Notes under the pieces: generated by a model
Databases searched by the model: none
Seen by the model: the letters and a program-made list of their open reading frames with translations, nothing else
Told to the model about the DNA's origin: nothing
NCBI GenBank assembly: GCA_030648835.1
Contig: JAUSGT010000002.1
Span: 309,458-373,457, forward strand
Reading direction: 5' to 3'
DNA: 64,000 nt
Source: Candidatus Moraniibacteriota bacterium
GTDB lineage: Bacteria > Patescibacteriota > Minisyncoccia > Moranbacterales > UBA1568
Position numbers and translations under genes: made by a program
Shown: in pieces, positions 9,826-62,930 of the stretch
How positions within the stretch are numbered: the first letter of the stretch is position 1
Layout: each line of letters starts with the position of its first letter

Positions 9826-9829
9826 CAAA

Positions 9830-42984: not shown

Positions 42985-43075
42985 GGAGAGGTGGCTGAGC
43001 GGCTGAAAGCGGCAGGTTGCTAACCTGTTATAGGACCTTAAAATCCTATCGAGGGTTCGAATCCCTCCCTCTCCG
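42985..43075 (+). tRNA. tRNA-Ser (anticodon GCU), long variable arm; left boundary of island
   Basis: ggagagg/cctctcc acceptor, anticodon stem cagg/cctg with loop ttgctaa, long extra arm. Confidence 0.75.
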
Positions 43076-43123
43076 CATCAAGCATTTAGTATCGAGAGAG
43101 ACCCGAGAGCCTCGAGTTAATGT

Positions 43124-43834: not shown

Positions 43835-43848
43835 AAATATTGATAAGT

Positions 43849-44823: not shown

Positions 44824-44897
44824 ATCTGGTCCGAGAGCCTCGAAATGAGCAATAAAAAAAACAGCAGTTTTTACCGCTGTTTTTTTATTGTTTAATT

Positions 44898-46363: not shown

Positions 46364-47830
46364 TCATATAATCCATATCCTTGGTATGATCGGCGGATCT
46401 TCCATAGTGCTTAAAACGACGTTTGAAAACGCATCAGCAAGATCATCGTGAGCCTCAACACCGAAATGCACGATCTGATTAATTAACTCCTCGCATCCTT
46501 CTCGTGGAAAGAGTATTTTTCCGCTCTTGACTGCATAGGCTGTCAGTATGAGTCGCGTGCGCTTATCTTGATTTCCTGGTCTCGTTGTTTTGACCTTTCT
46601 GATACCCTCGCTTTGCAACTGTTGCGGTAGAGACCTCTGATACGCAACATCTTCAATAACAAATATAGGATGTTTGTCATTCTCTTTAAAGTAGGAACTA
46701 TCTATTGCTTTGCACATGTCCACTGTTTCTGGGAAATCCATCTTCCTATTTACTATTTGTGGCAAGATATATACCCTCAAATCTTTCCCGTCGCCATACA
46801 GCATTGCCGGTACCATGGCCGTATAATCCGCTGTGTCCTTTTTTGAGATCGCCAGGTCAACCCCGATACGCACTTCAACGTGTTTGTCATACCCTTGGCA
46901 ATCCTTTTCGCCATGCGGTAACTCATCATAAAATTGGATCCATTCTCGGTGAATAGCTTGTTCTTCATCGGCAACGATGTGAAGCATATATTCTCGCTCC
47001 CAAGCAAATTCGTTTCCCGCTTTTCTTTTTTCACTTTCAATATCTTCCATAGAAAGATATTTTCCAGGCCATAAAATCTCCTGACCTCTTATGATGGGGA
47101 ATTCTTTGAATACGCCATCGATTCTTTCTTTTTCTACATCTTCCTTGATTCGCATAAGAAGCGAATCTTCGTGAAGCAGATTCCCAACGATAACCAGTCT
47201 CGTATTGCGATCTCCTGTAGGAATAACTTCTGCGGTCAGCCACTGATATGTCTTATTTCTTCCTTCGCGAGTCTTGGTAGAAGCCATGTCTTCCACATCG
47301 TCACAGATAATAAGGTCTGGTCGATGTTGATTGTGCCGCAAACCACGGATACTTTGTTCGCGAGAAGCAGCTGTAATTCGGGCATTGAGTTGAGAAAATA
47401 CAAGAGACGATGAACCCCATTCATCGGACTCCTCACGAAATGGCCCAAGATCATTCTTGAGAGTCGCGTTATTCTCTAGCTCTTGCCGGAGGTTCATCAT
47501 ATGTTGCTTCGCCTGTGATTGAGTCTGGCAAAGGATGAGCGCAAATTTTTTCTGTTGTCTGCCAAGAATCGCCCAGATTGGGTAGGAGGTGGTAAGTATC
47601 GTAGATTTTCCGCTGCCTCGGAAAGCGACAACGAAGAAATTACCAGCATTTTCGTTTTCCGAAAGATCAAACATCTCTGCTTGGAACTGAGCGGTCGGGT
47701 ATTTAACGTAATGGGCGAAGTAAAAATGGAAAAAGTGCCAGTGGCTTTCTTTAATGATTGCCACTCTGACTTTTCGATCCCTGATCATCGCCTCCGCTAA
47801 CCCCGGGGTTATTGTCCTTCTGTTGTTCAT
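46364..47830 (-). CDS. Phage terminase large subunit
   Basis: Walker A AFRGSGKST, Walker B ICDDVED, C-terminal RNaseH-like nuclease (IGVDLAISKKDTADYT). Confidence 0.8.
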   Translation of the reverse strand: MNNRRTITPGLAEAMIRDRKVRVAIIKESHWHFFHFYFAHYVKYPTAQFQAEMFDLSENENAGNFFVVAFRGSGKSTILTTSYPIWAILGRQQKKFALILCQTQSQAKQHMMNLRQELENNATLKNDLGPFREESDEWGSSSLVFSQLNARITAASREQSIRGLRHNQHRPDLIICDDVEDMASTKTREGRNKTYQWLTAEVIPTGDRNTRLVIVGNLLHEDSLLMRIKEDVEKERIDGVFKEFPIIRGQEILWPGKYLSMEDIESEKRKAGNEFAWEREYMLHIVADEEQAIHREWIQFYDELPHGEKDCQGYDKHVEVRIGVDLAISKKDTADYTAMVPAMLYGDGKDLRVYILPQIVNRKMDFPETVDMCKAIDSSYFKENDKHPIFVIEDVAYQRSLPQQLQSEGIRKVKTTRPGNQDKRTRLILTAYAVKSGKILFPREGCEELINQIVHFGVEAHDDLADAFSNVVLSTMEDPPIIPRIWII

Positions 47831-48221
47831 AAGATTGTGTCGTTATTTGATTTACTGAAGATAATCGCAGTGCTTCGCGAACGATCTCTTCCTGCTCTGG
47901 AGTAAGCACATCCTGAGACTGAATGTTGGCCGTTACTTCTACGCGCTCACGGAATTTCTGATGTCGGTGCCGGAGCCAGAAGCTGATCGCTTGATAACTC
48001 TTATCTCTGATAAGCGAAATGAGCTGAGATTCAGACATGTCGTTGATAAGCGCCTCGCCTTCGCTCAAAGCTTCTTCGAGTGATTGGCGAAACTTCTCGT
48101 CCTCATCTCGCCAGCGGTAGACGGAAGAACGCGCGACACCGACCTTTTCGCACGCCACCTGGATAATGGGAATCTTGCGGAGTTGCTCGAGAAATAAAAT
48201 CTTGGCTCGATCCTTTTTCAT
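47751..48221 (-). CDS. Terminase small subunit-like HTH protein
   Basis: N-terminal HTH VGVARSSVYRWRDE; immediately upstream of and overlapping terL. Confidence 0.5.
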   Translation of the reverse strand: MKKDRAKILFLEQLRKIPIIQVACEKVGVARSSVYRWRDEDEKFRQSLEEALSEGEALINDMSESQLISLIRDKSYQAISFWLRHRHQKFRERVEVTANIQSQDVLTPEQEEIVREALRLSSVNQITTQSYEQQKDNNPGVSGGDDQGSKSQSGNH

Positions 48222-49549
48222 AAGATTTTTTTCGGCTTTAATCCGGTTAATTTCGACCAGCGATTCAGAATCACCTCAGCGTAGATGGGGCTTTTTTCCA
48301 TCAGAAAACACTTGCGCTGCATTTTCACCGCTGCAATCAAAGTCGAACCGCTTCCACCATAGGGCTCAAAGATGAGATCGCCTCGCTTGGTCAGTATCTT
48401 GATGTAGGGAATAAGTATTTCCAGAGGTTTCGTGCCGAAAATAATTCCCTGTCCGGAAGATTTTTCATCGGCAGCGATATGCTCAATAAAATCAGTTGGG
48501 CAATACTTCTTGCCTTTGCCATAAGATTCCCAGTGGGGACTGCCCGAGGTTGCGAAAAGCGCCGTTTCGTATTCGGTTTGAAGCAATGCATCCGATTCTG
48601 GTTCAACGTTCAGCTCAACCTTGCCCGAAGTGCCGACCATTGCGAAGTCATGCTTATTGAAGAATTTATATTTGGCGCTAAATCCTTGAACGCGATTGGG
48701 GATATGCCAAATAATTGTATTTCTGTATTTCCAATGTTTTTCTAACTCATTCCAGATAGTCCGAAGATTTTTTGGATTCTCATAGACGATGATCGAAAAG
48801 TCTGGCTCCTGAATCTTGGCGACATTGTTCATCCAGAGTTCGGTAAAGTTGTCCGGGAGTGTTTCAGTGCCTAGATACACTCGATCGCGTTTTAACCCGA
48901 AGCCTTTGGTTACATTGCCGTTTTTCTTTTTCTTACCCTTGAGGTAATCCAGAAGATACGGAGGGTCCGTGAAGCACATATGCGCCTTATGTCCGTCAAA
49001 AAGTGTTAGAACATTTGCTTCAATTGTGGAATCCCCAATCATTACTCTGCTACCGTTTAGGTCGTATACTTCGCCGCTCTTTACTTTGATTTTTGTTATG
49101 TCTAACTTCGCCAGTTCTTTCTCTAAATCAAATACTTCTGGCGTTTCATCAATTCCAAAAATTTCGTCCATTTCTTCGCTCGAGAACCCAACGCTCCCGA
49201 GGAACTGTTCGCTGAAGTTGGAAAGAATATCCCAATCGAACTCGCCGGTGTTTTTATTCAGGCGAATATTCAGTTCCTTTTCTTTTTCCAAATCAGGAAT
49301 AGAAATGTATACCACTGGTACCTCTTTGATGCCGAGCTTCTTGGCCATAGCCAGGCGGAAGTGGCCACCGATGAGAATGTTCATTCGTTCCGATGCCGAA
49401 TTTACTACGAACGGGTCGACCAACCCGAATCGTTTGATACTTTCCTGAAGCTGGGTTTCTGCCTCCTTGCTCCATTTGCGCGGATTATATTCTGACGCCT
49501 TGAGGAGCGTGACGTCGACGTACTGCACCTGCAATTTTTCTTTTGGCAT
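48218..49549 (-). CDS. ParB-like nuclease domain fused to N4/N6 DNA methyltransferase (phage-type orphan MTase)
   Basis: N-terminal ParB/Srx motif (YNPRKWS...GGHFRL), MTase motif IV TDPPY and motif I FEPYGGSGST. Confidence 0.8.
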   Translation of the reverse strand: MPKEKLQVQYVDVTLLKASEYNPRKWSKEAETQLQESIKRFGLVDPFVVNSASERMNILIGGHFRLAMAKKLGIKEVPVVYISIPDLEKEKELNIRLNKNTGEFDWDILSNFSEQFLGSVGFSSEEMDEIFGIDETPEVFDLEKELAKLDITKIKVKSGEVYDLNGSRVMIGDSTIEANVLTLFDGHKAHMCFTDPPYLLDYLKGKKKKNGNVTKGFGLKRDRVYLGTETLPDNFTELWMNNVAKIQEPDFSIIVYENPKNLRTIWNELEKHWKYRNTIIWHIPNRVQGFSAKYKFFNKHDFAMVGTSGKVELNVEPESDALLQTEYETALFATSGSPHWESYGKGKKYCPTDFIEHIAADEKSSGQGIIFGTKPLEILIPYIKILTKRGDLIFEPYGGSGSTLIAAVKMQRKCFLMEKSPIYAEVILNRWSKLTGLKPKKIL

Positions 49550-49708: not shown

Positions 49709-50686
49709 TTAGTATGAATCTTCGTTTGGCTGAGGGTCTTCTTTGAATCCTTTCTTTTTCCGGGTAATAAACGTTTCCCCGCTACCCCTTAGACCAACGG
49801 GTGGTATAAGGATAAATCTAGAATGATAGTATCCATATTCTGAATAATTGAAAAACGGTTCTTCGTCTATACCGAATACCTGCCTCAGATGCTTTGATAG
49901 TATACTCTTAGTCGCATGAAGAGCATCCTTTTGTTTGAAATGTTCGTTACCAAGTAAATTATTTACCGTTGGTTGCTCACCTTTCCCCAGCTTAAAAGCC
50001 GAGAGTAAAAGGAGGAGAGTCCAGGCTTTGTTCGGAGTTTTATCTTTAGTGTTTGTTTTTACAAACCGAAGAACTTCTCGATCGAAACGACCGATAAATT
50101 TTTTCCCACATCGGATTTCTACCTCAATGTCGCTGGTAAATGCGAAGGTGATGTCTTCCCATCGGGTACCTGATGGCAATGTTACTATGGCTGTTCCTGA
50201 AAGGAGTTTTTGTGCTCTCTCCTTTGCTCGTTCCTCGACTTTCTCAAGAACTCTATTGGTTATAGTCTCAACGAGATCATCCTGGTGTAGGACTACTTCT
50301 CGCGTCTGTGGTCTTATCGGTCGAGTGGCGATAACTTCCGTTGGGATGTTGGGGACAAAGCGATTCCAAGAATCAACTATCTGACTGACGGATAGTACGA
50401 TCCGCTCCCGTTCTTTTTGAGCCCTTTGGATTTGTTCCTGCAGGTTGCCAAAGACTTCAAATGCATGTCTGTAGGTTTCGACAGCATAGTTCATCTGTTT
50501 TGCTAGGTTTTGCAAAGCCCCCGCTTGTTGCTGGAAGAACTGGTGGAGCAGAACCCGTTGTCTGAGAAACGGCTCTATATTGAAGGCAATCTCTTTTTGG
50601 ATGGCTAAAACATTAAACATAGGCACTAAGGCCATTTGTTGTGTGCTTTTTCCTTTTGGATTGGACGCTTTACTTTTGACTTTCAT
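49709..50686 (-). CDS. Hypothetical protein
   Basis: 325-aa ORF divergent from defence operon. Confidence 0.4.
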   Translation of the reverse strand: MKVKSKASNPKGKSTQQMALVPMFNVLAIQKEIAFNIEPFLRQRVLLHQFFQQQAGALQNLAKQMNYAVETYRHAFEVFGNLQEQIQRAQKERERIVLSVSQIVDSWNRFVPNIPTEVIATRPIRPQTREVVLHQDDLVETITNRVLEKVEERAKERAQKLLSGTAIVTLPSGTRWEDITFAFTSDIEVEIRCGKKFIGRFDREVLRFVKTNTKDKTPNKAWTLLLLLSAFKLGKGEQPTVNNLLGNEHFKQKDALHATKSILSKHLRQVFGIDEEPFFNYSEYGYYHSRFILIPPVGLRGSGETFITRKKKGFKEDPQPNEDSY

Positions 50687-50715: not shown

Positions 50716-50916
50716 ATGAAGAATCAAACGAAGAAAATCGAGGAATACCCGGAGATTTTGACGCTCCAGGAAGCTTGTGAGGTTTTGAATTGCCACCCAA
50801 ATACGCTTCGGAATTGGGATAACAAAGGCATCCTCAAGGCAATTCGGTTTGGCACGAGGAAGGACAGAAGGTACAAAAAGGAGGATGTGTTGAAAGTTAT
50901 CAATAAAGGCCACTAA
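50716..50916 (+). CDS. Excisionase/MerR-family HTH DNA-binding protein (possible controller or Xis)
   Basis: 66 aa; LTLQEACEVLNCHPNTLRNWDNKGIL HTH; 3 nt upstream of the SNF2 gene. Confidence 0.6.
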   Translation: MKNQTKKIEEYPEILTLQEACEVLNCHPNTLRNWDNKGILKAIRFGTRKDRRYKKEDVLKVINKGH

Positions 50917-50919
50917 AGT

Positions 50920-53862
50920 ATGGCGAAAATTACTTCCTATCATGCAAAATATTTTGCCCACGAGCTAACTAAGCGGTGTTCTTCGGATAGCTTAGAAAAA
51001 CTATCCTCAACACTTTCTAACGCTCAAGTTGATCTGAACCCTCATCAGATTGAGGCGGCACTTTTTGCATTTAAATCGCCGCTTTCTAAGGGAGCAATTC
51101 TGGCTGACGAAGTTGGTTTAGGGAAAACAATTGAAGCCGGCTTGGTGCTGTCTCAAAAATGGGCGGAACGAAAAAGAAAGATTTTATTAATAGTGCCGTC
51201 TAGTCTTAGAAAGCAGTGGAACTCAGAACTTCGAGAAAAGTTTTTTTTGCCATCAATAATTTTAGAAGCAAAATCTTTTAATCAAACTGTCAAAGAAGGT
51301 AATCTCAACCCTTTTAATCAGGATAACGCAATTATCATTTGTTCTTATCACTTCGCTAGAGCCAAATCATCCTATATCAAACAAACCCCTTTTGATTTAG
51401 TGGTTATTGATGAAGCACATCGTCTGCGTAATGTTTATAAAACGAGTAGTAAAATTGCCCGAGAAATAAAAGATGCCATTCAAGAATATCCTAAGCTACT
51501 TCTCACTGCCACTCCTTTGCAAAATTCTTTACTCGAGCTATACGGATTAACCAGTATTATTGACGACCATATTTTTGGGGATCTCAGTAGTTTTAAGGCG
51601 AATTATGCCAAAGTTTCACGAGAGCAGGATATTTACGAAAACGAGCTTGGTTTAGTTGAGCCGAGACAAGAAATGTTTGCTGATTTGCGTAATAGACTAA
51701 AGCCAATTTGTATTCGTACACTGCGTCGCCAGGTTTTGGAATATATTAATTATCGCGATCGCAAACCAATCACTCAGGACTATGTACCGACTGAGCAAGA
51801 AATTGAACTTTATGATGGGATGACTGAGTATCTTCAACGCCCACGTCTTTATGCTTTGCCGTTTAGCCAGCGTCAGCTTATGACGCTTATTTTACGCAAA
51901 CTTTTAGCCTCGTCATCATTTGCTATTGCCAGTACGCTCAATGGATTGGTCTATAAGTTAGAAAAATTGGAAGAAGAAATAAGAAAAAAATCAGCGGTGT
52001 TAGACGAAACACTTCCTTTAGGGATTGAAGAAAATTATGAGGCTTTTGAAACTACAGCTGATGAATGGATTGACGATGAGGAAGAAGAGATTGATGACAA
52101 GATAAAAGAAAAGAAAAAGTATACACTCGAAGATATTCCTTTGATTCAATCAGAAAAAACAGACCTAGAAAAATTTAGAGACTTAGCAAGAGCCATTTTC
52201 AAAAATTCCAAAGGAGAATCCTTGCTCATTGCTTTAGAAAAAGGTTTCGAAATGACTGCAACGCTTGGTGCTCAGAAAAAAGCAGTTATTTTTACAGAAT
52301 CAAGAATCACTCAGGATTATCTCTGGAAACTACTTTCGGATAGTGGTTACAAAGACAAAATGCTCTTATTCAATGGTTCTAATAATGATCAAAAGTCAAA
52401 AGATATTTATGCTGAATGGTTGAAGAAAAATAAAGACACTGACAACATAACAGACTCGAAGACCGCAGACCTTCGTGCCGCACTGGTGGACTACTTCAAG
52501 TCGGATGCCGAGATTATGATTGCTACTGAAGCGGCTGCTGAAGGCATCAACCTACAATTCTGTTCACTTGTTATCAACTATGATCTCCCATGGAATCCTC
52601 AAAGAATTGAGCAGAGAATTGGCCGTTGTCATCGTTATGGACAAAAACATGATGTAGTTGTGGTCAACTTTGTAAATCGAAAAAACGCTGCTGATCAGCG
52701 CGTTTATGAACTGCTTGATCAAAAGTTCAAACTTTTCAAAGGCGTTTTTGGGGTAAGCGATGAAGTGCTTGGTAGTATTGAGTCAGGGGTTGATTTTGAA
52801 AAACGTATTGCAGCTATTTACCAATCCTGTCGCACCGAGGAGGAAATCAACAATGCTTTTGACACCTTACAGACAGAAATGGACGATTCGATTCAGGAAG
52901 GCATGCGCGGAGCGAAAGAAAAACTTCTGGAAAATTTTGACGCGGATGTACATGAAAAACTCAAGATAAATTTGCGTGAGAGCAAGGGATATTTAGAAAC
53001 TTATGAAAAGTGGCTCTGGGATATCTCTCAGTACTTTCTAGGTGACAAAGCGGTTTATGCTGAAGATGAATATTCTTTTACACTTAAACGCAATCCATTT
53101 CCTGATGAAGATATTGATGAAGGTCCTTATAAAATTGGTAAAAATATTGATGATGCTCACATTTACCGTCCAGGACATCCTCTGGCTGAGAGAATTTTGC
53201 GTGAGGTAAAAGCACAGTCGTTATCAAGCGCTGAAATAGTTTTTGATTATTCCAATCACGGAAATATTATTTCTCCAATTAAAGAGTTGGTTGGTACTAG
53301 CGGTATTTTACAAGTATCAGAATTGACTATTGACTCGTTTGAAACCGAAGACAATATTCTGGTGACAGCAATAAAAAACAATAGCGAAGTAATTGAAGAA
53401 GATGTCGCAAAAAAACTTTTCTTACTCAGTGCTGAGGTGAAGGGAGATACTATCAAAACAGTAAGCGAAGAGGTTCAACAAAGAGAGCAGGAAAAGGTAA
53501 ATATTCTTACTGCAAGCATTGCCGGACGTAACAGCGAATTTTTTGATGATGAGGTAGACAAGCTTGATAAGTGGGCTGAAGATGTGAAAAAGAGTATGGA
53601 AATAGAACTCAAGCGTATGGATATTGATATTAAAACAATGAAAACGAACGCCAAAAAAGTCTTGAATTTAGGAGAAAAGGTAAAACTTCAACGAGAAATA
53701 AAGGATTTAGAAAAGAAACGAAACGATATGCGTCAGAAACTTTATAAGGCACAAGACGAAGTAGATGTGAAGAAAGAGAATTTACTGGAGAAAGTAGAAG
53801 CACAGCTGAAACAAAAAATGACGCTTGCACCATTATTTACAATACGATTTAAGGTGATATAA
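50920..53862 (+). CDS. SNF2-family helicase/ATPase with about 380-aa C-terminal coiled-coil extension
   Basis: Motif I DEVGLGKTIEAG, II DEAHRLRN, III LLLTATPLQNSLLELY, VI NPQRIEQRIGRCHRYGQ. Confidence 0.85.
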   Translation: MAKITSYHAKYFAHELTKRCSSDSLEKLSSTLSNAQVDLNPHQIEAALFAFKSPLSKGAILADEVGLGKTIEAGLVLSQKWAERKRKILLIVPSSLRKQWNSELREKFFLPSIILEAKSFNQTVKEGNLNPFNQDNAIIICSYHFARAKSSYIKQTPFDLVVIDEAHRLRNVYKTSSKIAREIKDAIQEYPKLLLTATPLQNSLLELYGLTSIIDDHIFGDLSSFKANYAKVSREQDIYENELGLVEPRQEMFADLRNRLKPICIRTLRRQVLEYINYRDRKPITQDYVPTEQEIELYDGMTEYLQRPRLYALPFSQRQLMTLILRKLLASSSFAIASTLNGLVYKLEKLEEEIRKKSAVLDETLPLGIEENYEAFETTADEWIDDEEEEIDDKIKEKKKYTLEDIPLIQSEKTDLEKFRDLARAIFKNSKGESLLIALEKGFEMTATLGAQKKAVIFTESRITQDYLWKLLSDSGYKDKMLLFNGSNNDQKSKDIYAEWLKKNKDTDNITDSKTADLRAALVDYFKSDAEIMIATEAAAEGINLQFCSLVINYDLPWNPQRIEQRIGRCHRYGQKHDVVVVNFVNRKNAADQRVYELLDQKFKLFKGVFGVSDEVLGSIESGVDFEKRIAAIYQSCRTEEEINNAFDTLQTEMDDSIQEGMRGAKEKLLENFDADVHEKLKINLRESKGYLETYEKWLWDISQYFLGDKAVYAEDEYSFTLKRNPFPDEDIDEGPYKIGKNIDDAHIYRPGHPLAERILREVKAQSLSSAEIVFDYSNHGNIISPIKELVGTSGILQVSELTIDSFETEDNILVTAIKNNSEVIEEDVAKKLFLLSAEVKGDTIKTVSEEVQQREQEKVNILTASIAGRNSEFFDDEVDKLDKWAEDVKKSMEIELKRMDIDIKTMKTNAKKVLNLGEKVKLQREIKDLEKKRNDMRQKLYKAQDEVDVKKENLLEKVEAQLKQKMTLAPLFTIRFKVI

Positions 53863-53866
53863 AAAT

Positions 53867-55570
53867 ATGAGCAATAACAAACAAAAACTAGAGCTCACGT
53901 GGATCGGGAAAAATAACCCCGAGTATGATATCTCCAACATTGAACCGCGCATCTTGGAAGAGCGGACTGATTTGTCATATGGTGATAAGGAGAGTGAGAA
54001 CATGATCATCCATGGTGACAACCTCCTCGCACTCAAGGCGCTTCTACCTGAATATGAGGGCAAAATAAAATGTATCTATATTGACCCACCATACAATACA
54101 GGTAATGCCTTTGAACATTACGACGATAGCGTGGAACACTCAACATGGCTCTCACTAATGAAGCCGCGGTTGGAACTTTTAAGAATGCTATTGAGTGAAG
54201 ATGGTGTTATTTTTATTCAAATAGACAATTCGGAGCAAGCGTATTTGAAAGTTCTATTAGACGAGGTTTTCCAAAGAAACAACTTTATTACGTCGTTTAT
54301 TCTTAAAGTTAGACATTCGGAACGAATGCTAAAAGGAGATAAAGATATTCATGATGTTGCTGAATACGTGCACTGTTATCAAAAATCAAATCAATTTAAA
54401 ATCTCAAAGAGAAAACAGGTAGTCGCAGATGATCCATACGAAGATTATCAGTGGGCAGTAAAAACAATTGGAACTGGAAAAACACTTGTATTGGGAAATA
54501 AAGAGTGCCGTGTTTTTAAGCCCGGTGAATATGAATTAACACGTTTAGACGGAAATAAAAGCGGGTTCAAAAAGATCAACATTCGTGGCGGACTAAGAGA
54601 AGGAAATAGTAGTGGTAGATTTTATGTTGCTCATATTGAACAAAGACTTCAGAATGATGGTTATAACGTTTTATACGAGGTACCTAATATTGGTGATGAT
54701 GGGACAGGACGCAGATATTTTCTTTTACCAGAAAATATGAAAAAGAAAAATGGTAATTATTTTCAGGGAGTACCACAAACACGAACTTCATCAAAAGATC
54801 TTCCATACCCATCTTTCTTCGATGTCTCTGCAGCTTTTAACCGTGTCGGCTACGAAGGAGTTGTCGAATTTCGAAATTCTAAAAAGCCGGAATCACTCAT
54901 TAAGACTTTTTTTGAAATAGCAAATTTGTCTAGCAACGATTGGATTTTAGATTCATTTCTTGGTTCTGGTACCACGGCTGCAGTAGCCCACAAAATGAAT
55001 TTTAATTATATCGGCATAGAAATGGGCAACCATGCTTATTCTCATGTCCATAAACGAATGAAAGCCGTTATTGATGGCGAGGATCATAGTGGAATCAGCG
55101 AAGCTGTGAACTGGCACGGAGGAGGAGGATTTAAATTTTATGAGCTTGCACCGAGTTTTATTGTGAAAGACGAATTTGGGAATCCTGTGATTGATAGTTT
55201 TTATAATGACGCTAAACTTATTAAAGCCATGTGTAAGCTGATGAACTTTACATATCAGCCAAGTCAAACAGAATATTGGAAGCACGGCGTGGGTCAAGGA
55301 AAGAACTATCTTTATGTTACTACTCAGCTTTTGACAAGCGGGATGATTCAGCAGATTGCAGGACATCTTACTGAGGGTGAGTCTTTGATAGTTTGTCCGA
55401 AGAAGTTTGAACCTGGTGCGGATAAAATTGATAGCCGTATTACTATTAAAAAAATACCGCAGTCGGTTCTGAAAGCTTGTCACTTTGGCAAAAAGGAATA
55501 TCTACTTCCAATCAAGGAATCCGCTCTGGAAGAGATAGAGGATGAATCACTAGAAGATGATAACGAATAA
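53867..55570 (+). CDS. N6-adenine DNA methyltransferase, beta-class (type III Mod-like)
   Basis: Motif IV IYIDPPYNTGN precedes motif I DSFLGSGTTAAVA; EHSTWLSLMKPRLELL region typical of Mod; 4 nt after SNF2 stop. Confidence 0.85.
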   Translation: MSNNKQKLELTWIGKNNPEYDISNIEPRILEERTDLSYGDKESENMIIHGDNLLALKALLPEYEGKIKCIYIDPPYNTGNAFEHYDDSVEHSTWLSLMKPRLELLRMLLSEDGVIFIQIDNSEQAYLKVLLDEVFQRNNFITSFILKVRHSERMLKGDKDIHDVAEYVHCYQKSNQFKISKRKQVVADDPYEDYQWAVKTIGTGKTLVLGNKECRVFKPGEYELTRLDGNKSGFKKINIRGGLREGNSSGRFYVAHIEQRLQNDGYNVLYEVPNIGDDGTGRRYFLLPENMKKKNGNYFQGVPQTRTSSKDLPYPSFFDVSAAFNRVGYEGVVEFRNSKKPESLIKTFFEIANLSSNDWILDSFLGSGTTAAVAHKMNFNYIGIEMGNHAYSHVHKRMKAVIDGEDHSGISEAVNWHGGGGFKFYELAPSFIVKDEFGNPVIDSFYNDAKLIKAMCKLMNFTYQPSQTEYWKHGVGQGKNYLYVTTQLLTSGMIQQIAGHLTEGESLIVCPKKFEPGADKIDSRITIKKIPQSVLKACHFGKKEYLLPIKESALEEIEDESLEDDNE

Positions 55571-55575
55571 ATACT

Positions 55576-58401
55576 ATGAGACCTGAGGAAGCGCTCAAAT
55601 ACCTCAATGGCGCGATGAGTTTGCACGCTCCGCAAGTAAAGAGTCTGGAGCTTTTTGCTCATTATTTGCAGTCACCAGCTGGGCAAAAATTGTTGTTACG
55701 CATGAAAAAAGAAGTGCGTGGCAATACAGCTGAGATATTAGCAGAAAGCAAAGCATACTTCAGTACTGTTCCCGAAGCACGCGAGTTTGAGGAATATGAA
55801 AGAGCGTTCCCGGCTTACACCTTTGCACTCGCTACCGGCGTAGGCAAAACCAGGTTGATGGGTGCTTTCGTAGCATATTTGTATTTGGTATATAATATTC
55901 AGCACTTTTTGATTGTTGCACCAAACCTGACTATTTATCGCAAGCTCTATGATGATTTTAGTAAGGCAAATAATCCTAAGTATGTTTTTAAGGGTATTCA
56001 AGAAGTAAATACAAATACGGTAAAAGTCATTACCACAGAAAATTACGCTAACTATAGACAGCAATCACTCTTTCTTAATCAGATTGAAATCAATATTTTT
56101 AATATCCAACAGTTCGCACAGAGGGATATGACCAGTGAGCGCGGTATTACGAAAGCGTGGGAAACCGCTGGGGAGTCCTATTTTGACTATTTAAAAGCGC
56201 ATGATGATTTAGTGGTGATGTTAGATGAAGCCCACCACTACCATGCGGATGCGGCCCTTGGCGCACTCGATTTGATGGATCCTCTATTTGGACTAGAAAT
56301 GACTGCTACACCATACCTTGGGACTCAAGGTACGGGCAGAAATGCAAGACAAATCAGAATGAAAAATGTTTTGTATTCCTATAACCTTGGTGATGCTATC
56401 CGAGGCAAGCTTGTCAAAGATCCATGGATAGGCACTGAAGCAGATGTGGATTTCAGTCAATTTGATCCTGACTCTATTGATACTGACGCGCGCAAATTGC
56501 AACTGGCGGCTTTTTTTCACGAACGTGCTAAAAATGCACTGAAGGAGTATGCGTTGGAAAATAATAAGCCGATTGTAAAACCGGTTATGTTGGTGGTAGC
56601 AAAAGACACAACACACGCAGGAGAGTTACGCGCTTTGATTGATAGCGATAATTTTCGTGGTGGAGAATTTAAGGGAAAGGTTATTGAGATACACACTAAA
56701 CTTCGTGGAGATGAGGCAGATGAAAATATTGATAAATTAATTTCACTTGAACACCCCGATAATCCAGTGGAGATTGTGATTCACGTCAATATGCTCAAGG
56801 AAGGTTGGGATGTGACAAATGTGTATACCATTGCGCCTTTGCGTGAGGCAGCTGCCGCGATTTTGACCGAGCAGACAATCGGGCGTGGTTTACGCTTACC
56901 TTACGGAGAACGCACCGGCATACCTTTGGTAGACAGACTGGTGCTCGTTGCTCACGAACAGTTTGCTAAAGTTGTGGCACTTGCTAAAGACTCACCACTT
57001 ATTCAAGGACAGGTTGAACAAATTTCAGAGAGAGAAGCTAAAGAAGTTAAAGTGTTCACCGAAGTTCAGTCCGTTGCTCTTGATGCCGTTAAAGATGCAA
57101 TAACGCAAAATGAAGTGGTGATGCAAGAGGTTGAAAAACAAGTTGAAGAAGAGATTGCTAAAATGCCGCAAGCAGATTTAATGGATGAATCAGTAAAAGG
57201 AAAAATGAAAGAAACCAAGACAGATGAAAAAGTAACTGGCTTATCAAAAATTGTATGTGGAATTAATACATTTTCTAGTTATCACGGGCAAAAACTGAGT
57301 GTTTCACCAGAGCTGTCCTTTGGAACTGATACATTGTTTGGATTTTTCAGTGATGAAGCAAAAGGTGAGCTCTCAAGGATTGCAAAAAAATCTGGAGAGG
57401 CAATGGAAGAAAGAAATATACCAATTCCGCGTTTGATGCTTACCCCGCACTTTGGTGAACTTTTGATAGAACAATTTGATTTGGATACGAGTGTATTACG
57501 TACATATACTAATGAGCGAGCTATTCTTGAAGAACAATTACAAAATGATCGTGAGAAAAATTTATTTGATGAAGAAGTTCCAGGACGTCGAATGACTGAA
57601 GTAACAAGAATAAGCAGTTTTGGTGCGCATACGAGACAGACTCCACAAAGCACTATAATTGCTTCGCTTCTTGATTTTCCGTTGGTTGATTATGATGATC
57701 CTTCGCAAAAACCATTGCTTCTGAGATTAGCAGAGCAAGCTGTCATACATTATCGAGAAAAGGCGATTGATGAAGATAATCTTGCCCTGATTGTTGAAAG
57801 TAACGCGCGTACAATTGCCGAAGATATTTATCAGCAGATTTTGACACATAAAGAATTGAAGTCTGAGGGATATCTTGAGTCCGATGTGCGTGAACCGAAA
57901 CCATATTTGGAACAGTATAATATTTCCTTGTTGTTTGGAGAAAAACCTGTTTCTCTTGAATCACAGCTAAATACTTTTAGTGCCAAACTTGTCTATGGAC
58001 AGTTTCAAAAGGCCTGCCACTCAATGTATCGTTTTGATTCTTCAGATGAAGTACGTCTAGCGTATTTATTAGATCGTGAAGATTCAGTTGAAGATTGGTT
58101 ACGCCCAGCCCCTAATCAATTTGAGGGCTTGTATTGGCGTGATATAGAAGGAGAGTCTCATCATCGCTACGAACCAGATTTTGTTGTTGAATTTGAAAAT
58201 GAGATAGTAATGATAGAAGTGAAGCCGGAATTAGAAATCCAAGCTCTAAGCGTACAGGCAAAAAAACAAACCGCAGAAAAATACTGTGAGGTAGTGAATA
58301 AAAATATTGGAAAGTTTGGTATCATAAAGCCATGGCGGTATGTGATTGTTCCCACAGAAAAAATAACAATAAGTTCTACGATAGATGGATTGTTGAGTTG
58401 A
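55576..58401 (+). CDS. Type III restriction Res-like subunit: DEAH helicase + C-terminal PD-(D/E)xK nuclease
   Basis: Walker A ATGVGKT, motif II VVMLDEAHHY, III EMTATPY, VI QTIGRGLRLPYG; C-terminal EPDFVVEFENEIVMIEVKPE. Confidence 0.8.
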   Translation: MRPEEALKYLNGAMSLHAPQVKSLELFAHYLQSPAGQKLLLRMKKEVRGNTAEILAESKAYFSTVPEAREFEEYERAFPAYTFALATGVGKTRLMGAFVAYLYLVYNIQHFLIVAPNLTIYRKLYDDFSKANNPKYVFKGIQEVNTNTVKVITTENYANYRQQSLFLNQIEINIFNIQQFAQRDMTSERGITKAWETAGESYFDYLKAHDDLVVMLDEAHHYHADAALGALDLMDPLFGLEMTATPYLGTQGTGRNARQIRMKNVLYSYNLGDAIRGKLVKDPWIGTEADVDFSQFDPDSIDTDARKLQLAAFFHERAKNALKEYALENNKPIVKPVMLVVAKDTTHAGELRALIDSDNFRGGEFKGKVIEIHTKLRGDEADENIDKLISLEHPDNPVEIVIHVNMLKEGWDVTNVYTIAPLREAAAAILTEQTIGRGLRLPYGERTGIPLVDRLVLVAHEQFAKVVALAKDSPLIQGQVEQISEREAKEVKVFTEVQSVALDAVKDAITQNEVVMQEVEKQVEEEIAKMPQADLMDESVKGKMKETKTDEKVTGLSKIVCGINTFSSYHGQKLSVSPELSFGTDTLFGFFSDEAKGELSRIAKKSGEAMEERNIPIPRLMLTPHFGELLIEQFDLDTSVLRTYTNERAILEEQLQNDREKNLFDEEVPGRRMTEVTRISSFGAHTRQTPQSTIIASLLDFPLVDYDDPSQKPLLLRLAEQAVIHYREKAIDEDNLALIVESNARTIAEDIYQQILTHKELKSEGYLESDVREPKPYLEQYNISLLFGEKPVSLESQLNTFSAKLVYGQFQKACHSMYRFDSSDEVRLAYLLDREDSVEDWLRPAPNQFEGLYWRDIEGESHHRYEPDFVVEFENEIVMIEVKPELEIQALSVQAKKQTAEKYCEVVNKNIGKFGIIKPWRYVIVPTEKITISSTIDGLLS

Positions 58402-58467: not shown

Positions 58468-58830
58468 ATGGAAATTGATGATAAAAAAATTGGACAAATA
58501 CTTGGAAATTTAGAATCTGCGATTGGAAAAATTATTAGAATAGATATGTGGTTGCCTGAAGCTATAGATTATGCTATAAATGGCCATCGTGGAACTTTGG
58601 ATCGAGCGGATATTGATAGAGCGACCAGGGAGAAAAAGGAGGATAATAAAATTCAAATAGAAATTGACAGTTTGCGTAGTCAAGTTGAAGAATCACAAAA
58701 ACAAACCCAAGAAATAAAGAAGCAGACGCGCTACTTATTGTATGCATTCATTATCGCTATTTTTAGTTTTTCATTAAATGCCATTTTGCAAATAAGCCCG
58801 AATCTGTTTGGCCTACTAAATACAAAATAA
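58468..58830 (+). CDS. Hypothetical coiled-coil protein with C-terminal TM helix
   Basis: 120-aa ORF in AT-rich defence block. Confidence 0.35.
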   Translation: MEIDDKKIGQILGNLESAIGKIIRIDMWLPEAIDYAINGHRGTLDRADIDRATREKKEDNKIQIEIDSLRSQVEESQKQTQEIKKQTRYLLYAFIIAIFSFSLNAILQISPNLFGLLNTK

Positions 58831-58913
58831 AGAAGATGCCAACTTGTTTATAAACTCTACGATCTCACCCCAGAAGAAATTGAAATTATAGAAAATTCAA
58901 GTAAGAAATAATC

Positions 58914-59516
58914 ATGCTTTCACTTGATCAAAAAGAGATAGAAGCCAAGCTGGATACATTTAATTGGAATTTTAAAGTTGGGGATAATATAAAACACAAC
59001 ATTGAAGAAGTGTTTTTCTTGTACAAAATAAAAGAAGAAAATTGTTCATATACTAGGGAAAAACAATTTATAAATAAACATATATCAATAACCCTAGTTG
59101 CTATTATTGAAGGAATTTTACACGACTTTGTTGTAAGACTAAGCGAAGCCACAAACCACTTTCCGTTAATCATTGATGATAAGAAAAAGAAGGATATCAA
59201 AAAATATATTTCAGAGCAAAAAGTACCTTTTAAGTATAAAAAACTTGAGGGTAGAATACTCAGAGTCAAAAACTATTCATTCGCTCAGATTCTCAAGTTG
59301 CTTCAAAACTTCGAGCTGTTAGAGTCAAAAAATAGCCCAATCTACAATACGTTAGAGGCCGCCACTCATTTTAGAAATCGCATCCATATTTATAATTGGT
59401 TTAATAACTTTGAGACCGACGAGAGGGATGTTTTTACGGATAAACGGTTAGAAGTTCTCGAGTGGTTAGTTATTTACATCTTAACTACAATGGAGGCCAA
59501 GTACTCACGGCCTTGA
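58914..59516 (+). CDS. Hypothetical protein with HEPN-like R-N-x-I-H motif (paralog of 59766-60389)
   Basis: TLEAATHFRNRIHIYNW aligns with EIAEEIRIARNKIHVSG of the next protein. Confidence 0.4.
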   Translation: MLSLDQKEIEAKLDTFNWNFKVGDNIKHNIEEVFFLYKIKEENCSYTREKQFINKHISITLVAIIEGILHDFVVRLSEATNHFPLIIDDKKKKDIKKYISEQKVPFKYKKLEGRILRVKNYSFAQILKLLQNFELLESKNSPIYNTLEAATHFRNRIHIYNWFNNFETDERDVFTDKRLEVLEWLVIYILTTMEAKYSRP

Positions 59517-59765
59517 GAAGAGGGTTGTGAGGGAGTATCTGTTCAAAGAAGGTTTGTGGATTATGAATTTGGACTAGCAACCTAGTGGAATGGCGTATTT
59601 TTTGCTACAATAAAAACATGTCAAAACAGATTAGAAAAAAGAGAGAAGATACTAAGATTGGGACCATAGAAAAAAAATATGATCGTGATTTTGGTGTGCG
59701 ATCAGATAAGAAACTAGGAAACTATCTTAAGGAACAAGGGTTTCCATCGTTAAGTAAGCTTCTCG

Positions 59766-60389
59766 ATGAAACAAAGCGAGGAAAAAAGTGATGAGGTTAT
59801 TGATGAGTTGATGCCAAAAGAAACCTTTGAGAAAAGGTTCTCTTTTATTACAAACGATACTCTAAAAAAGAATATCGCGATTGCTTTTGAATATATTGTT
59901 TTTCTAATTGATACTGCAGGAAAGGAAAATCATAAGCAATTGATTAGAAGTTCTCTTTATAAGGATGCGACCGTTTATACAGGGACTATTGTTGAGGCCT
60001 GTCTTTGTCATGTACTTATGAAATATTTCTCAGTAAACAAATTACAAAAAACAAAAGTTTTGACTCCAGAATGGAAAGAAGAAGCACAAGGGTTTATACA
60101 CGAGTTTAGTAAAAAAAAGAGGATCCGTTATGTTATTGAGCATATAAGCTACGAAGATATTAGAGATTCATCAAACTTTATCGAAATAAATCGTGCTTGT
60201 CTTCGTGGCAGGATACTTTCTAAAAAAGAATACGAAATTGCAGAAGAAATAAGAATAGCTAGGAATAAAATTCACGTATCTGGATTAAAGGAAATAGATA
60301 ATTCATACAGCAAAGAGAAGCTTGATGAAATCTTTTCTAAAGCAAATAAAATTATTAGAAAAGTAGAAAAGAAACTTTTGAAGCTTTAG
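59766..60389 (+). CDS. Hypothetical protein with HEPN-like Rx6H motif (RIARNKIH)
   Basis: Motif as above; possibly fused by frameshift to upstream 68-aa ORF 59585-59791. Confidence 0.4.
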   Translation: MKQSEEKSDEVIDELMPKETFEKRFSFITNDTLKKNIAIAFEYIVFLIDTAGKENHKQLIRSSLYKDATVYTGTIVEACLCHVLMKYFSVNKLQKTKVLTPEWKEEAQGFIHEFSKKKRIRYVIEHISYEDIRDSSNFIEINRACLRGRILSKKEYEIAEEIRIARNKIHVSGLKEIDNSYSKEKLDEIFSKANKIIRKVEKKLLKL

Positions 60390-60673
60390 GGGGTTTTTTT
60401 TCAGAGAGTAAAAAAATAGTCAGGTACCATTTTGGTAGGAATTTTCTCAGCCCTGGTTCGTTTTTAGTGGCTTGATTTATTCTTCAAAAAGAGTAGGATA
60501 CAAGCACAACTGAATAGTGAATTATCTAGAGAGTGGCGAGAGCACTGGCTCACTGACCCACCGGCAACCCTTGGCAACAAGAAGGTGCCCCATCCAGCCC
60601 TGGAAAGGGAAAGATATCGGTCGATTCTTTCTCTGTCTCTGGACAGAGTTTTTGATTTTCTAACGATAATACT

Positions 60674-61099
60674 ATGAAAAATATCTACTATAAAGCAAAA
60701 GAAGAAGATGAGACTCCTCTCCATATGTCTGGATTTGTTCCGTTCCGTTTGGAACTTAAAAATTTCCCAAAATATGACAATTTTCCATACAATATTTTGT
60801 TCGCAGGAGATGCCAACATAGACGGAGTGGACATGTCCGGCAGTGCTCTGTATTTTCCCGATTTTTCAACGTTTCAGGAAAGTGAGAAAAAACAGTCTAT
60901 GACTTATTTTAACCAATATAGTCGCGAATGGACGGTGGTGATTGAGTATGACAAGCAAAGGGGTTCGTGGGAAGGATCAAAATATTACAAAGGTGAATTC
61001 AAAGGCGGTGGCGGTGGTACAGAGTGGAGAATGGCTTTTGCACATCTGACTATGGCTGGATTGGCGAATGGTGAAAGGGTGGAATTTGAAAAGATTTGA
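60674..61099 (+). CDS. Hypothetical protein
   Basis: 141-aa ORF; stop overlaps next start (atga). Confidence 0.35.
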   Translation: MKNIYYKAKEEDETPLHMSGFVPFRLELKNFPKYDNFPYNILFAGDANIDGVDMSGSALYFPDFSTFQESEKKQSMTYFNQYSREWTVVIEYDKQRGSWEGSKYYKGEFKGGGGGTEWRMAFAHLTMAGLANGERVEFEKI

Positions 61100-61542
61100 A
61101 AAGTTTTTTTAACGCTAAAATCATGAAAAATATGGACAACAATCAAAACAGGGAATCGCTTTCCCAGGTTAAGGTAAAAGAAGTAGCTTCGCGCTACATT
61201 AGCGGATGTGATAAGTGGTATAGAATGTATGCTGGCATTGCTTCGAATCTAGAAAGATATGAAAGCGGTATTATGTATCTGCGGATAGAAAATACCGAGA
61301 AAACAAAACCTTCAAGCTATGAAACGGCCGTTGAGTTCGCTCGCAAATGGGTGGGATACAATGCAGAATTAAAAGACGCGAAAGGGTTCGTTGTTTCGTT
61401 CTATACCAGCGGGGCGACTGGTTTTGTATTGAATGGTGCCACTGATAAAGGTATTGCTAGCGATTTGGTTCAGCAATTCATAAGGGCTTCGCAGCAAGAA
61501 AAAAAACTAGTGAATATTTTTTCTGGAGAGTTGAAAGTTTGA
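61096..61542 (+). CDS. Hypothetical protein
   Basis: 148-aa ORF translationally coupled to previous. Confidence 0.35.
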   Translation: MKSFFNAKIMKNMDNNQNRESLSQVKVKEVASRYISGCDKWYRMYAGIASNLERYESGIMYLRIENTEKTKPSSYETAVEFARKWVGYNAELKDAKGFVVSFYTSGATGFVLNGATDKGIASDLVQQFIRASQQEKKLVNIFSGELKV

Positions 61543-61589: not shown

Positions 61590-62930
61590 TTAGTCGAGCT
61601 CTGTTGAAAAAGTTGGTATCCCAACTCTCTTTCGACTTGTTTCACCTTTGAAGAGGTGATTTTTTCTTTCTGGTACTCTACCTCGTTCTCCTGAGTGCTG
61701 AGTAAATTGGTGTGCAAGAAAGGAAGCGCCAAAGTGAATAGTGTGTTTCCCATACTTGGCTCTTACTTCATCGATTTTTTCATAAAGTCTGCGAAAACCG
61801 TCAATTTTCAGTGAAGACCCAAACAAATCTGGCTGCAGATTCGGTTCTTGAAGTTCAATCAAGCCGATCATAGTTGCTCGATAGAGTACCCCTTTTTTAA
61901 ACAAATTATCAAACTCAGGTTTTAATAAATCAATCAGTTCATGAGCGAAGTTTGTCGGTCGAGAAAGCTTTACTTCAGTCGAATGGTGTTCGTAGTTCTG
62001 GGTGCGGAGGAGAATATATACTTTTTTGGCTTCCAGTTTATAGCCTCTCGCTTTCATGCAAGCGGATTCGATGTTCTTACAGAGCTGAGCAAAGACAAAA
62101 CGAGGATCATTGGATGGAGGAGTGAACGTCTTCATCTTCTGGATAGAATAGTGATCTGCGCGAGGCTCTATCTGTAGTGGCATGACGCTTTCTCCTCTGA
62201 GCTCTGACCAGATTTCTTGGATCGGTTTTGGAAAATATTTTTGTACCCACTCCTTATCTCTGCGGACGAAATCCAAACAGGTATGAACTCCGTATTTTTG
62301 AAGCAGTGAAGATGTTTGCGGTCCAATACCCCAGGGCTTACCAATAGGCAGATTTTCTAGATAAAGATGAATCTTTCTGTTGGGGATAGCTGTCAGGCCA
62401 TTGGGCTTATTCCATTTAGAACCAAGCTTAGCTAGTACCTTCGTAGAAGCAAGGCCGATAGAGAAGGTAAAACCAAGTTCTTTGGTCAGATCATCTTGGA
62501 GCTTCTCTGCAATCTTCGTATAGCTCATGTGAAACGGCCTCTGCCAGCCTGTTAGGTCGGCAAAGCACTCGTCTATCCCATATTCTTCTACGTCTGGCGT
62601 ATAACGCCTCACAATATCAAAGAAACGTTTGGAAAGAAGGGAATAAGTCTCATAGTCAGAAGGGAGAATAATAGCTTCAGGGCAGAGCTTTTTAATCTCA
62701 GAGAGTCTCATGGCTCTCGTTACTCCCTTGGCTTTAGCTTCGTAGCTCATGGAAGCGGCGATGCCTCGTTCTTTGCCGGTGATGACTGGCTTACCTCGCA
62801 GTTCTGGGTTTCTGGCTTGTTCACAAGAGGCAAAGAAAGCATCTCCGTCGATATGGAGGATGGCGCGGGGAAACTTACCAAGAGCAATAGGGGCAGACAT
62901 ACTAGTACTTTCTGATGATAGCTGTGACAA
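61590..62930 (-). CDS. Y-family DNA polymerase (DinB/UmuC-like)
   Basis: ILHIDGDAFFASCE and GIDECFADLTG catalytic motifs. Confidence 0.85.
   Translation of the reverse strand: MSQLSSESTSMSAPIALGKFPRAILHIDGDAFFASCEQARNPELRGKPVITGKERGIAASMSYEAKAKGVTRAMRLSEIKKLCPEAIILPSDYETYSLLSKRFFDIVRRYTPDVEEYGIDECFADLTGWQRPFHMSYTKIAEKLQDDLTKELGFTFSIGLASTKVLAKLGSKWNKPNGLTAIPNRKIHLYLENLPIGKPWGIGPQTSSLLQKYGVHTCLDFVRRDKEWVQKYFPKPIQEIWSELRGESVMPLQIEPRADHYSIQKMKTFTPPSNDPRFVFAQLCKNIESACMKARGYKLEAKKVYILLRTQNYEHHSTEVKLSRPTNFAHELIDLLKPEFDNLFKKGVLYRATMIGLIELQEPNLQPDLFGSSLKIDGFRRLYEKIDEVRAKYGKHTIHFGASFLAHQFTQHSGERGRVPERKNHLFKGETSRKRVGIPTFSTELD

Follow-up and report, generated by a model that had tools for sequence, protein, structure and literature searches.

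A DrmD-like SNF2 gene recurs upstream of type III Mod-Res pairs: a candidate accessory module in a Candidatus Moraniibacteriota locus

What kind of system is encoded by four closely packed genes of a Candidatus Moraniibacteriota bacterium in which a SNF2-family ATPase gene stands directly before a type III-like pair of methyltransferase and helicase-nuclease genes? The four genes occupy positions 50716-58401 of a 64,000-nucleotide stretch of contig JAUSGT010000002.1 (assembly GCA_030648835.1, positions 309,458 to 373,457), the whole of which we call the window. All four are on the forward strand. They encode a 66-amino-acid (aa) HTH_17/MerR-like DNA-binding protein (50716-50916; Pfam and NCBIfam profiles), a 980-aa RapA/DrmD-like SNF2-family ATPase (50920-53862; Pfam, PADLOC and NCBIfam profiles and motifs), a 567-aa type III Mod (53867-55570; Pfam and PADLOC profiles and motifs), and a 941-aa type III Res (55576-58401; same basis as Mod), and the gaps between these open reading frames (ORFs) are 3, 4, and 5 nucleotides (nt), respectively. 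GC content is 0.34-0.43 across 51-61 kb, compared with 0.45-0.56 in most of the window. An initial reading of this DNA made from its letters alone, without database searches (the sequence-only reading), had described a tightly spaced, same-strand operon in an AT-rich block and had judged it to be neither plain type III restriction-modification (R-M) nor canonical DISARM. The coordinates and composition agree with that description, and the judgment holds as well: the SNF2 gene is conserved before Mod in other genomes, and DrmA, DrmB, and DrmC are missing. On comparative grounds, the SNF2-Mod-Res arrangement is best called a real, conserved, and widespread one, namely, type III R-M supplemented by a DrmD-like SNF2 accessory.

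The evidence that carries this answer is synteny. A protein scan covering 185,579 species, each by a single genome, returned 444 relatives of the SNF2 protein, and the best 80 loci, with SNF2 identities of 51-88%, were examined. Their hosts include Patescibacteria, Ignavibacteria, Syntrophaceae, Omnitrophota, Bacteroidota (among them the isolates Sunxiuqinia dokdonensis DH1 and Pedobacter sp. CG_S7), Verrucomicrobiota, Acidobacteriota, Planctomycetota, and others. A second scan, in which IMG/VR was searched with an alignment of diverse SNF2 sequences, added loci down to approximately 37% identity. Pooling and de-duplicating both scans, and keeping only those loci where the SNF2 match was full-length and the downstream DNA ran to at least 9 kb, yielded a synteny sample of 80 loci, 72 of which have type III Mod and Res downstream of SNF2 on the same strand. 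Three loci have Mod alone (in two of these, Res is truncated where the fetched DNA stops), and five have neither gene on the same strand; in one of the five, L156, Mod and Res lie on the opposite one. The linkage persists down to 37-45% SNF2 identity, and in the first two locus contexts examined the trio kept matching spacing in otherwise unrelated surroundings. Synteny at 72/80 loci rules out chance adjacency, which the sequence-only reading had raised as the alternative to a genuine association. By their PADLOC models, the Mod/Res pairs belong to three subtypes: subtype A, which includes the window (MTase_III PDLC03636 and REase_III PDLC03648; 40 loci); subtype B, exemplified by L077 (PDLC03634 and PDLC03647, the latter at 1000 bits and with an RE_endonuc domain; 18 loci); and subtype C, exemplified by L131 (PDLC03646 at 1128 bits and PDLC03654 at 1538 bits; 14 loci). 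Clustered at 50% identity, the SNF2 family as a whole amounts to 3,137 clusters with E <= 1e-30, and more than 100 clusters within the Patescibacteria are 73-88% identical.

Mod and Res have the makings of a type III pair. Mod matches PF01555 (N6_N4_Mtase, 1.2e-34) and the PADLOC model MTase_III PDLC03636 (444 bits), and its motifs come in the order of the beta class, with DPPY73 ahead of FLGSGTT364, the very arrangement (DPPY before FxGSGTT) from which a Mod-type enzyme had been proposed. We classify it as a predicted beta-class N6-adenine (or N4-cytosine) DNA methyltransferase. Aligned with close homologues, Mod keeps 70-98% identity at residues 1-120 and 361-560, whereas identity drops to 0-50% at residues 121-360; this variable central segment is the target-recognition domain, which has therefore been swapped repeatedly, as in working R-M systems. 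Res matches ResIII (1.1e-19) and REase_III PDLC03648 (406 bits), and contains the motifs GVGKT88, DEAH217, TAT243, QTIGRGLR433, and P867-D868...E881-V-K883. A weak match to the PD-(D/E)xK domain Tn7_TnsA-like_N covers residues 852-905 (3.3e-5, just under the Pfam cut-off); the nuclease region of subtype A Res is thus TnsA-like, in contrast to the RE_endonuc domain (PF19778) found in subtype B. From these features, we predict a superfamily 2 (SF2) helicase-like ATPase with a C-terminal PD-(D/E)xK nuclease. The sequence-only reading had taken this 941-aa protein for Res rather than DrmA on the strength of its Walker A, DEAH, and later motifs and its C-terminal PD...EVK signature; all of these are present in the translation, and REase_III is the top PADLOC profile, with no match to DrmA. 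The gene order is that of type III systems, mod standing directly before res on the same strand, and it is the same in the 72 related loci.

The SNF2 protein carries the full set of helicase motifs that had been read from its sequence (GLGKT66, DEAH164, TAT196, and QRIGRCHR565), with Pfam matches to SNF2-rel_dom (1.4e-33) and Helicase_C (6e-20) and a helicase core at approximately residues 30-700. The coiled-coil tail noted earlier also reappears: AlphaFold models the C-terminal region as a beta-rich domain (approximately 711-841) followed by a coiled-coil helical hairpin (850-963), both with predicted local distance difference test (pLDDT) scores of 70-89. No nuclease or other effector domain was found by Pfam or in the AlphaFold model. 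The best profiles are those of DISARM DrmD (PADLOC PDLC02619, 678 bits; NCBIfam DISARM_DrmD_b, 684.7 bits, which is under the equivalog cut-off of 950 bits of the latter model), and weaker matches were obtained to BrxHI/BrxHII (203 and 147 bits), RapA (NCBIfam, 172 bits), HmaA (170 bits), and DpdE. Ten further SNF2 proteins were scored against the DrmD_b model, most of them matching its positions 22-657 of 868: nine trio-linked ones from subtype A and subtype B loci reached 667-711 bits, all under the cut-off, and the tenth, a distant cluster representative without known context, 513 bits. A genuine DISARM locus from IMG/VR (L166) served for comparison; its 871-aa SNF2 protein matches PADLOC DrmD end to end at 1410 bits and is followed by DrmA (1051 bits), DrmB (286 bits), and DrmC (315 bits). 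The window SNF2 is 40% identical to this DrmD over residues 31-698 only, and its last 280 residues have no detectable similarity to it, whereas its identity to the SNF2 of a subtype C locus is 44% and extends over the full length, beta domain and coiled coil included. Given this shared C-terminal region of their own, we therefore classify the type-III-linked SNF2s as a sister group of DrmD_b with a distinct C-terminal region. Among solved structures, the nearest to the window SNF2 is E. coli RapA (8spg, 1.9e-19; 6bog), which matches over nearly the whole length and ranks ahead of ISWI, Chd1, and Snf2. The model was built from a shallow alignment (73-88% identity), and we used only its C-terminal region and the RapA ranking.

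How does such a locus relate to DISARM, which the sequence-only reading had invoked for its resemblance to class 1? The resemblance is borne out by DrmD being the best SNF2 profile and by composite loci described below. Ordinary DISARM itself was rejected, since DrmA, DrmB, and DrmC are absent and the methylase is of the PF01555 type rather than a DrmMI of the pfam13659 type, by which class 1 DISARM is defined (bioRxiv 10.1101/2021.12.28.474362). Searching the 64-kb window by tblastn with genuine DrmA, DrmB, and DrmC gave nothing better than E > 2, E > 0.6, and E > 0.6, respectively, no DUF1998 or PLD domain was detected in the window ORFs scanned by profile, in line with the reported absence of DrmB and of a PLD gene, and no DrmMI model is among the best 25 PADLOC matches of Mod. 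Five composite IMG/VR loci (L162, L165, L168, L170, and L175, at approximately 9.9-21.9 kb in each locus) encode, in order, a genuine 871-aa DrmD_b, a subtype A Mod, a Res-like ResIII protein, DrmA, and DrmB; their DrmD_b-type SNF2s are 45-69% identical to the DrmD of L166 over the full length. There seems to be, then, a DrmD_b variety of DISARM that holds a type III R-M pair instead of DrmMI. Judged by gene content, the loci line up as a graded series: Mod-Res; SNF2-Mod-Res; DrmD-Mod-Res-DrmA-DrmB; and DrmD-DrmA-DrmB-DrmC. The trio documents an evolutionary bridge from Mod-Res towards DISARM. In class 1 DISARM, deletion of drmD together with drmMI nearly abolished protection against phage Nami, and deletion of drmABC left protection against T1 and M13 (bioRxiv 10.1101/2021.12.28.474362), which suggests that an SNF2-methylase module can contribute independently of DrmABC.

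Within the trio, the three genes do not behave alike. Across 31 subtype A loci, pairwise identities of Mod (taken over its conserved parts) and Res co-vary closely (Spearman's rho of 0.86), in contrast to those of SNF2 with Res (0.29) or with Mod (0.31). Discordance is evident at single loci: L006 has an SNF2 identity of 85% and a Res identity of 38%, and L030 has 71% and 81%, respectively. When Res was used as the IMG/VR query and approximately 8 kb or more of upstream DNA was available, SNF2 was present in 12/19 loci, leaving seven with Mod-Res of the same subfamily and no SNF2. The distance between SNF2 and Mod is at most 60 nt in 35/72 loci, with gaps of 4 nt or overlaps in many, and exceeds 400 nt in 34/72, where the intervening space is usually taken by other defence genes. 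The SNF2|Mod junction is in fact a hot spot at which known or candidate defence genes have been inserted, as is the Mod|Res junction in Rhizobium. Inserts include an AAA_13 PrrC-like ATPase (PDC-S06), RhuM (PDC-S05), a Schlafen AlbA_2 protein, an AAA_15/SMC-like ATPase, and IS256, and those on plasmids include Abi in Salmonella and DUF262 in Rhizobium (L018, 13132-15408; L031, 10550-12016; L062, 3884-6181; L034, 12981-14027; L184, 9400-11567; L185, 12899-14170). Taken together, the correlation pattern, the discordant loci, the inserts, and the pairs without SNF2 indicate that Mod-Res is a self-contained, co-evolving pair and SNF2 a separately exchangeable module. The SNF2 gene has the look of a portable accessory, found upstream of Mod-Res very frequently yet not invariably.

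We asked how far these data carry the view that the window encodes a mobile-element-borne type III R-M system with a functionally coupled accessory SNF2 and an HTH_17 protein, for which we infer an anti-phage function. We put the probability of this reading at about 0.68, a figure that refers to composition and coupling and not to the mechanism of SNF2. Several points count against it. Defence activity, methylation, and an interaction of SNF2 with Mod or Res are all deduced from sequence. The single operon is argued from gene spacing only, as promoter and terminator scans, in which sites were no commoner than in shuffled sequence, were at chance level and uninformative. The HTH gene is missing from most loci, its family also includes excisionases, and recombinase genes lie nearby. 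In the C-terminal region of SNF2, neither a reader nor a docking domain was recognized. The helicase core of the AlphaFold model is poor (mean pLDDT of 61.7) and its superposition on RapA is poor as well (template-modelling score of approximately 0.3); the low score is attributable to the weakness of the model in the core, so that the RapA analogy draws on Foldseek E-values and profile matches rather than on a confident superposition. Finally, the weak co-variation of SNF2, the frequent inserts, and the Mod-Res pairs without SNF2 would also be expected of two independent neighbouring systems.

This last point leads to the rival that survives best, although we consider it improbable: an ordinary type III R-M system and a stand-alone SNF2 defence or maintenance gene may simply share a hot spot without being coupled. 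The low SNF2 correlations next to the high Mod-Res one, the wide gaps filled with other defence genes, and the seven SNF2-less loci all fit such a situation, and single-gene SNF2 defences exist, HmaA being one (PMC11232893). What speaks for coupling instead is that SNF2 keeps a fixed place, upstream and on the same strand, in 72/80 loci, with three Mod/Res subfamilies, in many phyla and on plasmids, and that the gap to Mod is so often reduced to 4 nt or an overlap. The inserts themselves can be read in the same direction, since genes embedded on the same strand are typical of multi-gene systems that function as one, such as type I R-M, BREX, DISARM, and Hma (bioRxiv 10.1101/2024.01.29.577857). 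In addition, no nuclease or effector domain that would equip SNF2 to act by itself was found.

If SNF2 is coupled to Mod-Res, what could it contribute? The Mod proteins of type III systems methylate one strand of an asymmetric site and thereby mark self DNA. In enzymes of the EcoP15I type, a Mod2-Res complex binds unmethylated sites, ATP switches it to sliding, and the collision of complexes results in cleavage by the PD-(D/E)xK nuclease. By analogy, Mod of the window would mark host DNA at a short asymmetric site, and Res, joined to a Mod dimer, would slide after the ATP-dependent switch and cut unmethylated DNA when two complexes meet. The SNF2 protein would be an ATP-driven double-stranded DNA translocase of the RapA/DrmD kind. 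Since its partners include three Mod/Res subfamilies as well as DrmABC, and since it co-varies only weakly with them, it probably acts on the DNA substrate; it would thus be coupled to Mod-Res via DNA, without a tightly co-evolving protein interface. It is tempting to speculate that its translocation strips roadblocks, such as RNA polymerase and phage DNA-binding or anti-restriction proteins, from the invading DNA, and that it may also evict stalled Mod-Res complexes, in the way that RapA evicts post-termination RNA polymerase. Either activity would raise the efficiency of an enzyme that needs to slide unobstructed in one dimension. The RapA precedent, combined with this requirement of type III enzymes for unobstructed one-dimensional diffusion, makes roadblock clearing and complex recycling the role of SNF2 that we favour, if only tentatively. 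Alternatively, and with less likelihood, SNF2 and Mod may together make up a second arm, resembling DISARM, by which unmethylated DNA is blocked rather than cleaved. More doubtful is a third option, in which the DrmD-family SNF2 is a portable, self-contained motor that upgrades several methylation-based restriction cores (three type III subfamilies and DISARM DrmABC) and, with type III pairs, changes the rules of restriction, allowing cleavage at single sites or at sites in one orientation, or of phage DNA that is protein coated or modified. Were this third option true, it would close known escape routes from type III enzymes, define a widespread new class of R-M system ("SNF2-assisted type III"), and provide the first concrete function for DrmD.

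SNF2 could also serve the host or the element rather than restriction, by alleviating restriction, by self-protection, or by aiding processive methylation by Mod; for instance, it might remove Mod-Res from host sites that lack modification, either after DNA damage or after arrival in a new host. In favour of this, RapA-like proteins clear stalled complexes from DNA (RapA structures 8t0l and 4s20), and conjugative plasmids and phage-like elements must methylate before they restrict in each new host. An HTH regulator is often present, and the 73-88% identity seen in more than 100 clusters indicates strong purifying selection on SNF2. We nevertheless regard this explanation as quite improbable: the two-site rule of type III enzymes already spares hemimethylated host DNA. 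Moreover, in DISARM, BREX type 3, ARMADA, and Dpd, the SNF2-type partner is as a rule counted among the restricting machinery (PMC12458937, PMC12839542). That the locus is a reduced or degenerate DISARM, i.e., a DrmD_b-type, class 1-like system that has lost DrmA, DrmB, and DrmC, is highly improbable, for although DrmD is the best SNF2 profile and the composite loci join DrmD_b, Mod, and Res to DrmA and DrmB, the window contains no tblastn remnant of DrmA, DrmB, or DrmC, the trio occurs without DrmABC in 72 loci as a stable architecture rather than a product of decay, the trio-linked SNF2s tested fall under the DrmD_b cut-off and have their own C-terminal 280 residues, and Mod is not of the DrmMI type.

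Returning to the type III system with a coupled SNF2, its first gene deserves separate consideration. The helix-turn-helix (HTH) protein matches HTH_17 (1.5e-11) and MerR_1 (1.7e-7) in Pfam, TIGR01764 "excise" (2e-7) in NCBIfam, and mad1 (4e-10) in PADLOC, consistent with its earlier assignment to the excisionase/MerR family. An HTH_17 gene stands directly before SNF2 in L013, L029, L069, L024, L047, L080, L087, L107, L184, and L185, and an XRE-type HTH gene takes the same position in L003, L089, and L095; in approximately 70/82 loci, no credible small gene precedes SNF2. The HTH gene is thus a recurrent yet optional component of the system. The HTH_17 proteins of different loci have diverged past BLAST detection while retaining their position before SNF2, a combination that fits an operon regulator of the C-protein kind better than a chance neighbour. 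The protein is probably a transcriptional controller and, similar to a C protein, would control transcription of the operon upon entry of the element into a new host. A role as excisionase of the adjacent serine-recombinase element is less likely, since HTH_17 abuts or overlaps the start of SNF2 in loci with different recombinases or none; recombinase genes (serine recombinases) are found within 8 kb upstream in 17/97 loci. A 325-aa ORF without a family in any library (49709-50686, reverse strand) is divergently oriented to the HTH gene and lies only 29 nt from its start, and any operon promoter must therefore overlap the 5' end of that ORF.

The low-GC stretch with the cassette starts after a tRNA-Ser gene (42985-43076), and the remainder of the window holds housekeeping genes, e.g., those for ValRS, RecG, TsaD, and tRNAs. 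Between the tRNA and the cassette, all on the reverse strand, lie genes for a large serine recombinase (44898-46247; Pfam Resolvase, Recombinase, and Zn_ribbon_recom), a terminase large subunit (46364-47830; Terminase_6C, PHROG 1.2e-76), a small-terminase-like HTH protein (47751-48221; PHROG small subunit, 1.7e-12), and a ParB-N6 methyltransferase (48218-49549; ParB_N and N6_N4_Mtase). The same recombinase-terminase-ParB/methyltransferase module is located beside the trio on four unrelated contigs (L013, L029, L086, and L123), which suggests that the defence cassette travels as cargo of a phage-like or satellite-like mobile element. A search of direct and inverted repeats for attachment sites or element ends returned only short repeats, of the kind that are often chance matches. 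A 13-nt exact direct repeat, CCGAGAGCCTCGA, occurs at 43103-43115 and 44831-44843, between the tRNA-Ser and the serine recombinase gene, where it flanks two ORFs without a family (43124-43834 and 43789-44823); it could be a remnant of an attachment site or a chance occurrence. Directly after Res, in the same low-GC block, are six small forward-strand ORFs (120, 200, 68, 207, 141, and 148 aa; 58468-61542). None belongs to a Pfam, PADLOC, NCBIfam, or PHROG family, the sole signal being a weak Swt1-like HEPN match at 59766-60389 (E of 0.004), and they may be further cargo of the island. Next, on the reverse strand (61590-63477), a gene for a UmuC-like Y-family polymerase (IMS, 1e-47) overlaps one for an S24 LexA/UmuD-like peptidase. 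Such pairs are often carried on mobile elements, and this one may represent the distal boundary of the island.

The mobility of the trio is also apparent from its distribution. At the protein level, SNF2 homologues of approximately 45% identity were found on 50 PLSDB plasmids, 32 of them conjugative, the hosts including Salmonella (15), Klebsiella (11), and Providencia (5). The complete order HTH_17-SNF2-Mod-Res is present on at least two plasmids, L184 (Salmonella enterica pR18.1595_113k, NZ_CP100694.1, positions 6232-16247, IncFIB, conjugative) and L185 (Rhizobium). The 9-kb region had no megablast match in complete E. coli genomes or in PLSDB plasmids, the DNA being too divergent, and protein-level searches alone were successful. 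SNF2 proteins 83-87% identical to the one in the window were observed in metagenome-assembled genomes labelled as Ignavibacteria (P0053/L003), Syntrophaceae (L011 and L019), and Gammaproteobacteria (L031), which suggests either that the cassette crossed between phyla very recently or that mis-binned contigs of Patescibacteria or mobile elements are involved. On plasmids, RefSeq names the three proteins generically as "SNF2-related protein," "site-specific DNA-methyltransferase," and "DEAD/DEAH box helicase family protein." Annotation thus splits the trio into "RM type III" and an orphan "SNF2-related protein," and censuses of defence systems therefore miss the association.

The module is common, occurring in many phyla and on conjugative plasmids of Salmonella, Klebsiella, and Providencia, and it is present in the genome-reduced Patescibacteria, which are largely without CRISPR. 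A motor of the kind present in DISARM (DrmD), BREX type 3, ARMADA, and Dpd, set here on type III Mod-Res, which is among the best-understood restriction machines, offers a simple three-gene setting in which to dissect SNF2 function, and the plasmid-borne examples are ready-made experimental models.

Bacterial SWI2/SNF2 genes have long been noted in R-M contexts in comparative genomics, and the question remains how the present arrangement compares with named systems. With type III R-M systems such as EcoP15I and EcoP1I, it has in common mod before res, a beta-class Mod with a variable target-recognition domain, and a Res that combines SF2 and PD-(D/E)xK domains; it differs from the classical two-gene systems in carrying a third conserved gene, SNF2, before mod, and sometimes an HTH gene. 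As in class 1 DISARM (DrmD_b), a DrmD-like SNF2 stands just before an N6-adenine methylase and a large helicase, but the cassette is devoid of DrmA (a YprA-like helicase), DrmB (DUF1998), and DrmC (PLD), and the C terminus of its SNF2 is different. With Hma it shares an SNF2 helicase adjoining a methylase and the frequent embedded defence genes (PMC8565338; bioRxiv 10.1101/2024.01.29.577857). The window SNF2, however, lacks the NOV_C nuclease domain (Pfam; PMC11232893), and Res takes the place of the HmaC ATPase. Hma was rejected accordingly (HmaA at 170 bits versus DrmD at 678, no NOV_C, and no ATPase gene in the operon), so that the set is no exact match to this named system. MADS, with its eight genes mad1-mad8, was rejected since only the HTH protein matches a component (mad1) and no other mad gene was found in the operon or among its neighbours, and BREX was rejected since the eight proteins scanned with PADLOC gave no PglX or PglZ match and only weak BrxHI/BrxHII ones. 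The SNF2 protein resembles RapA and BrxHII of BREX type 3 in that C-terminal alpha+beta domains come after the SNF2 core (PMC12839542). In contrast to RapA, it has no N-terminal Tudor domains, its helicase beginning at approximately residue 30, and has a long C-terminal coiled coil; its gene is not linked to those for RNA polymerase, PglX, or PglZ. Alike in overall design are ARMADA type II and BREX-related systems, where one co-directional cluster on a mobile element likewise combines a SNF2/RapA-like ATPase with an N6-adenine methylase and a helicase or nuclease effector (PMC12458937, PMC12839542). The methylase here is nevertheless a type III Mod and not PglX/YeeA-like, and the helicase is Res and not a YprA-like helicase or HKD nuclease; by PADLOC, no membership in these systems was found at the sequence level. 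The literature searched, a limited collection, contained no description of the SNF2-Mod-Res trio. What seems new, then, is the arrangement of the trio, whereas every one of its component families is known, as are designs that unite an SNF2 protein, a methylase, and a helicase-nuclease, namely, class 1 DISARM, ARMADA, and the BREX-related systems.

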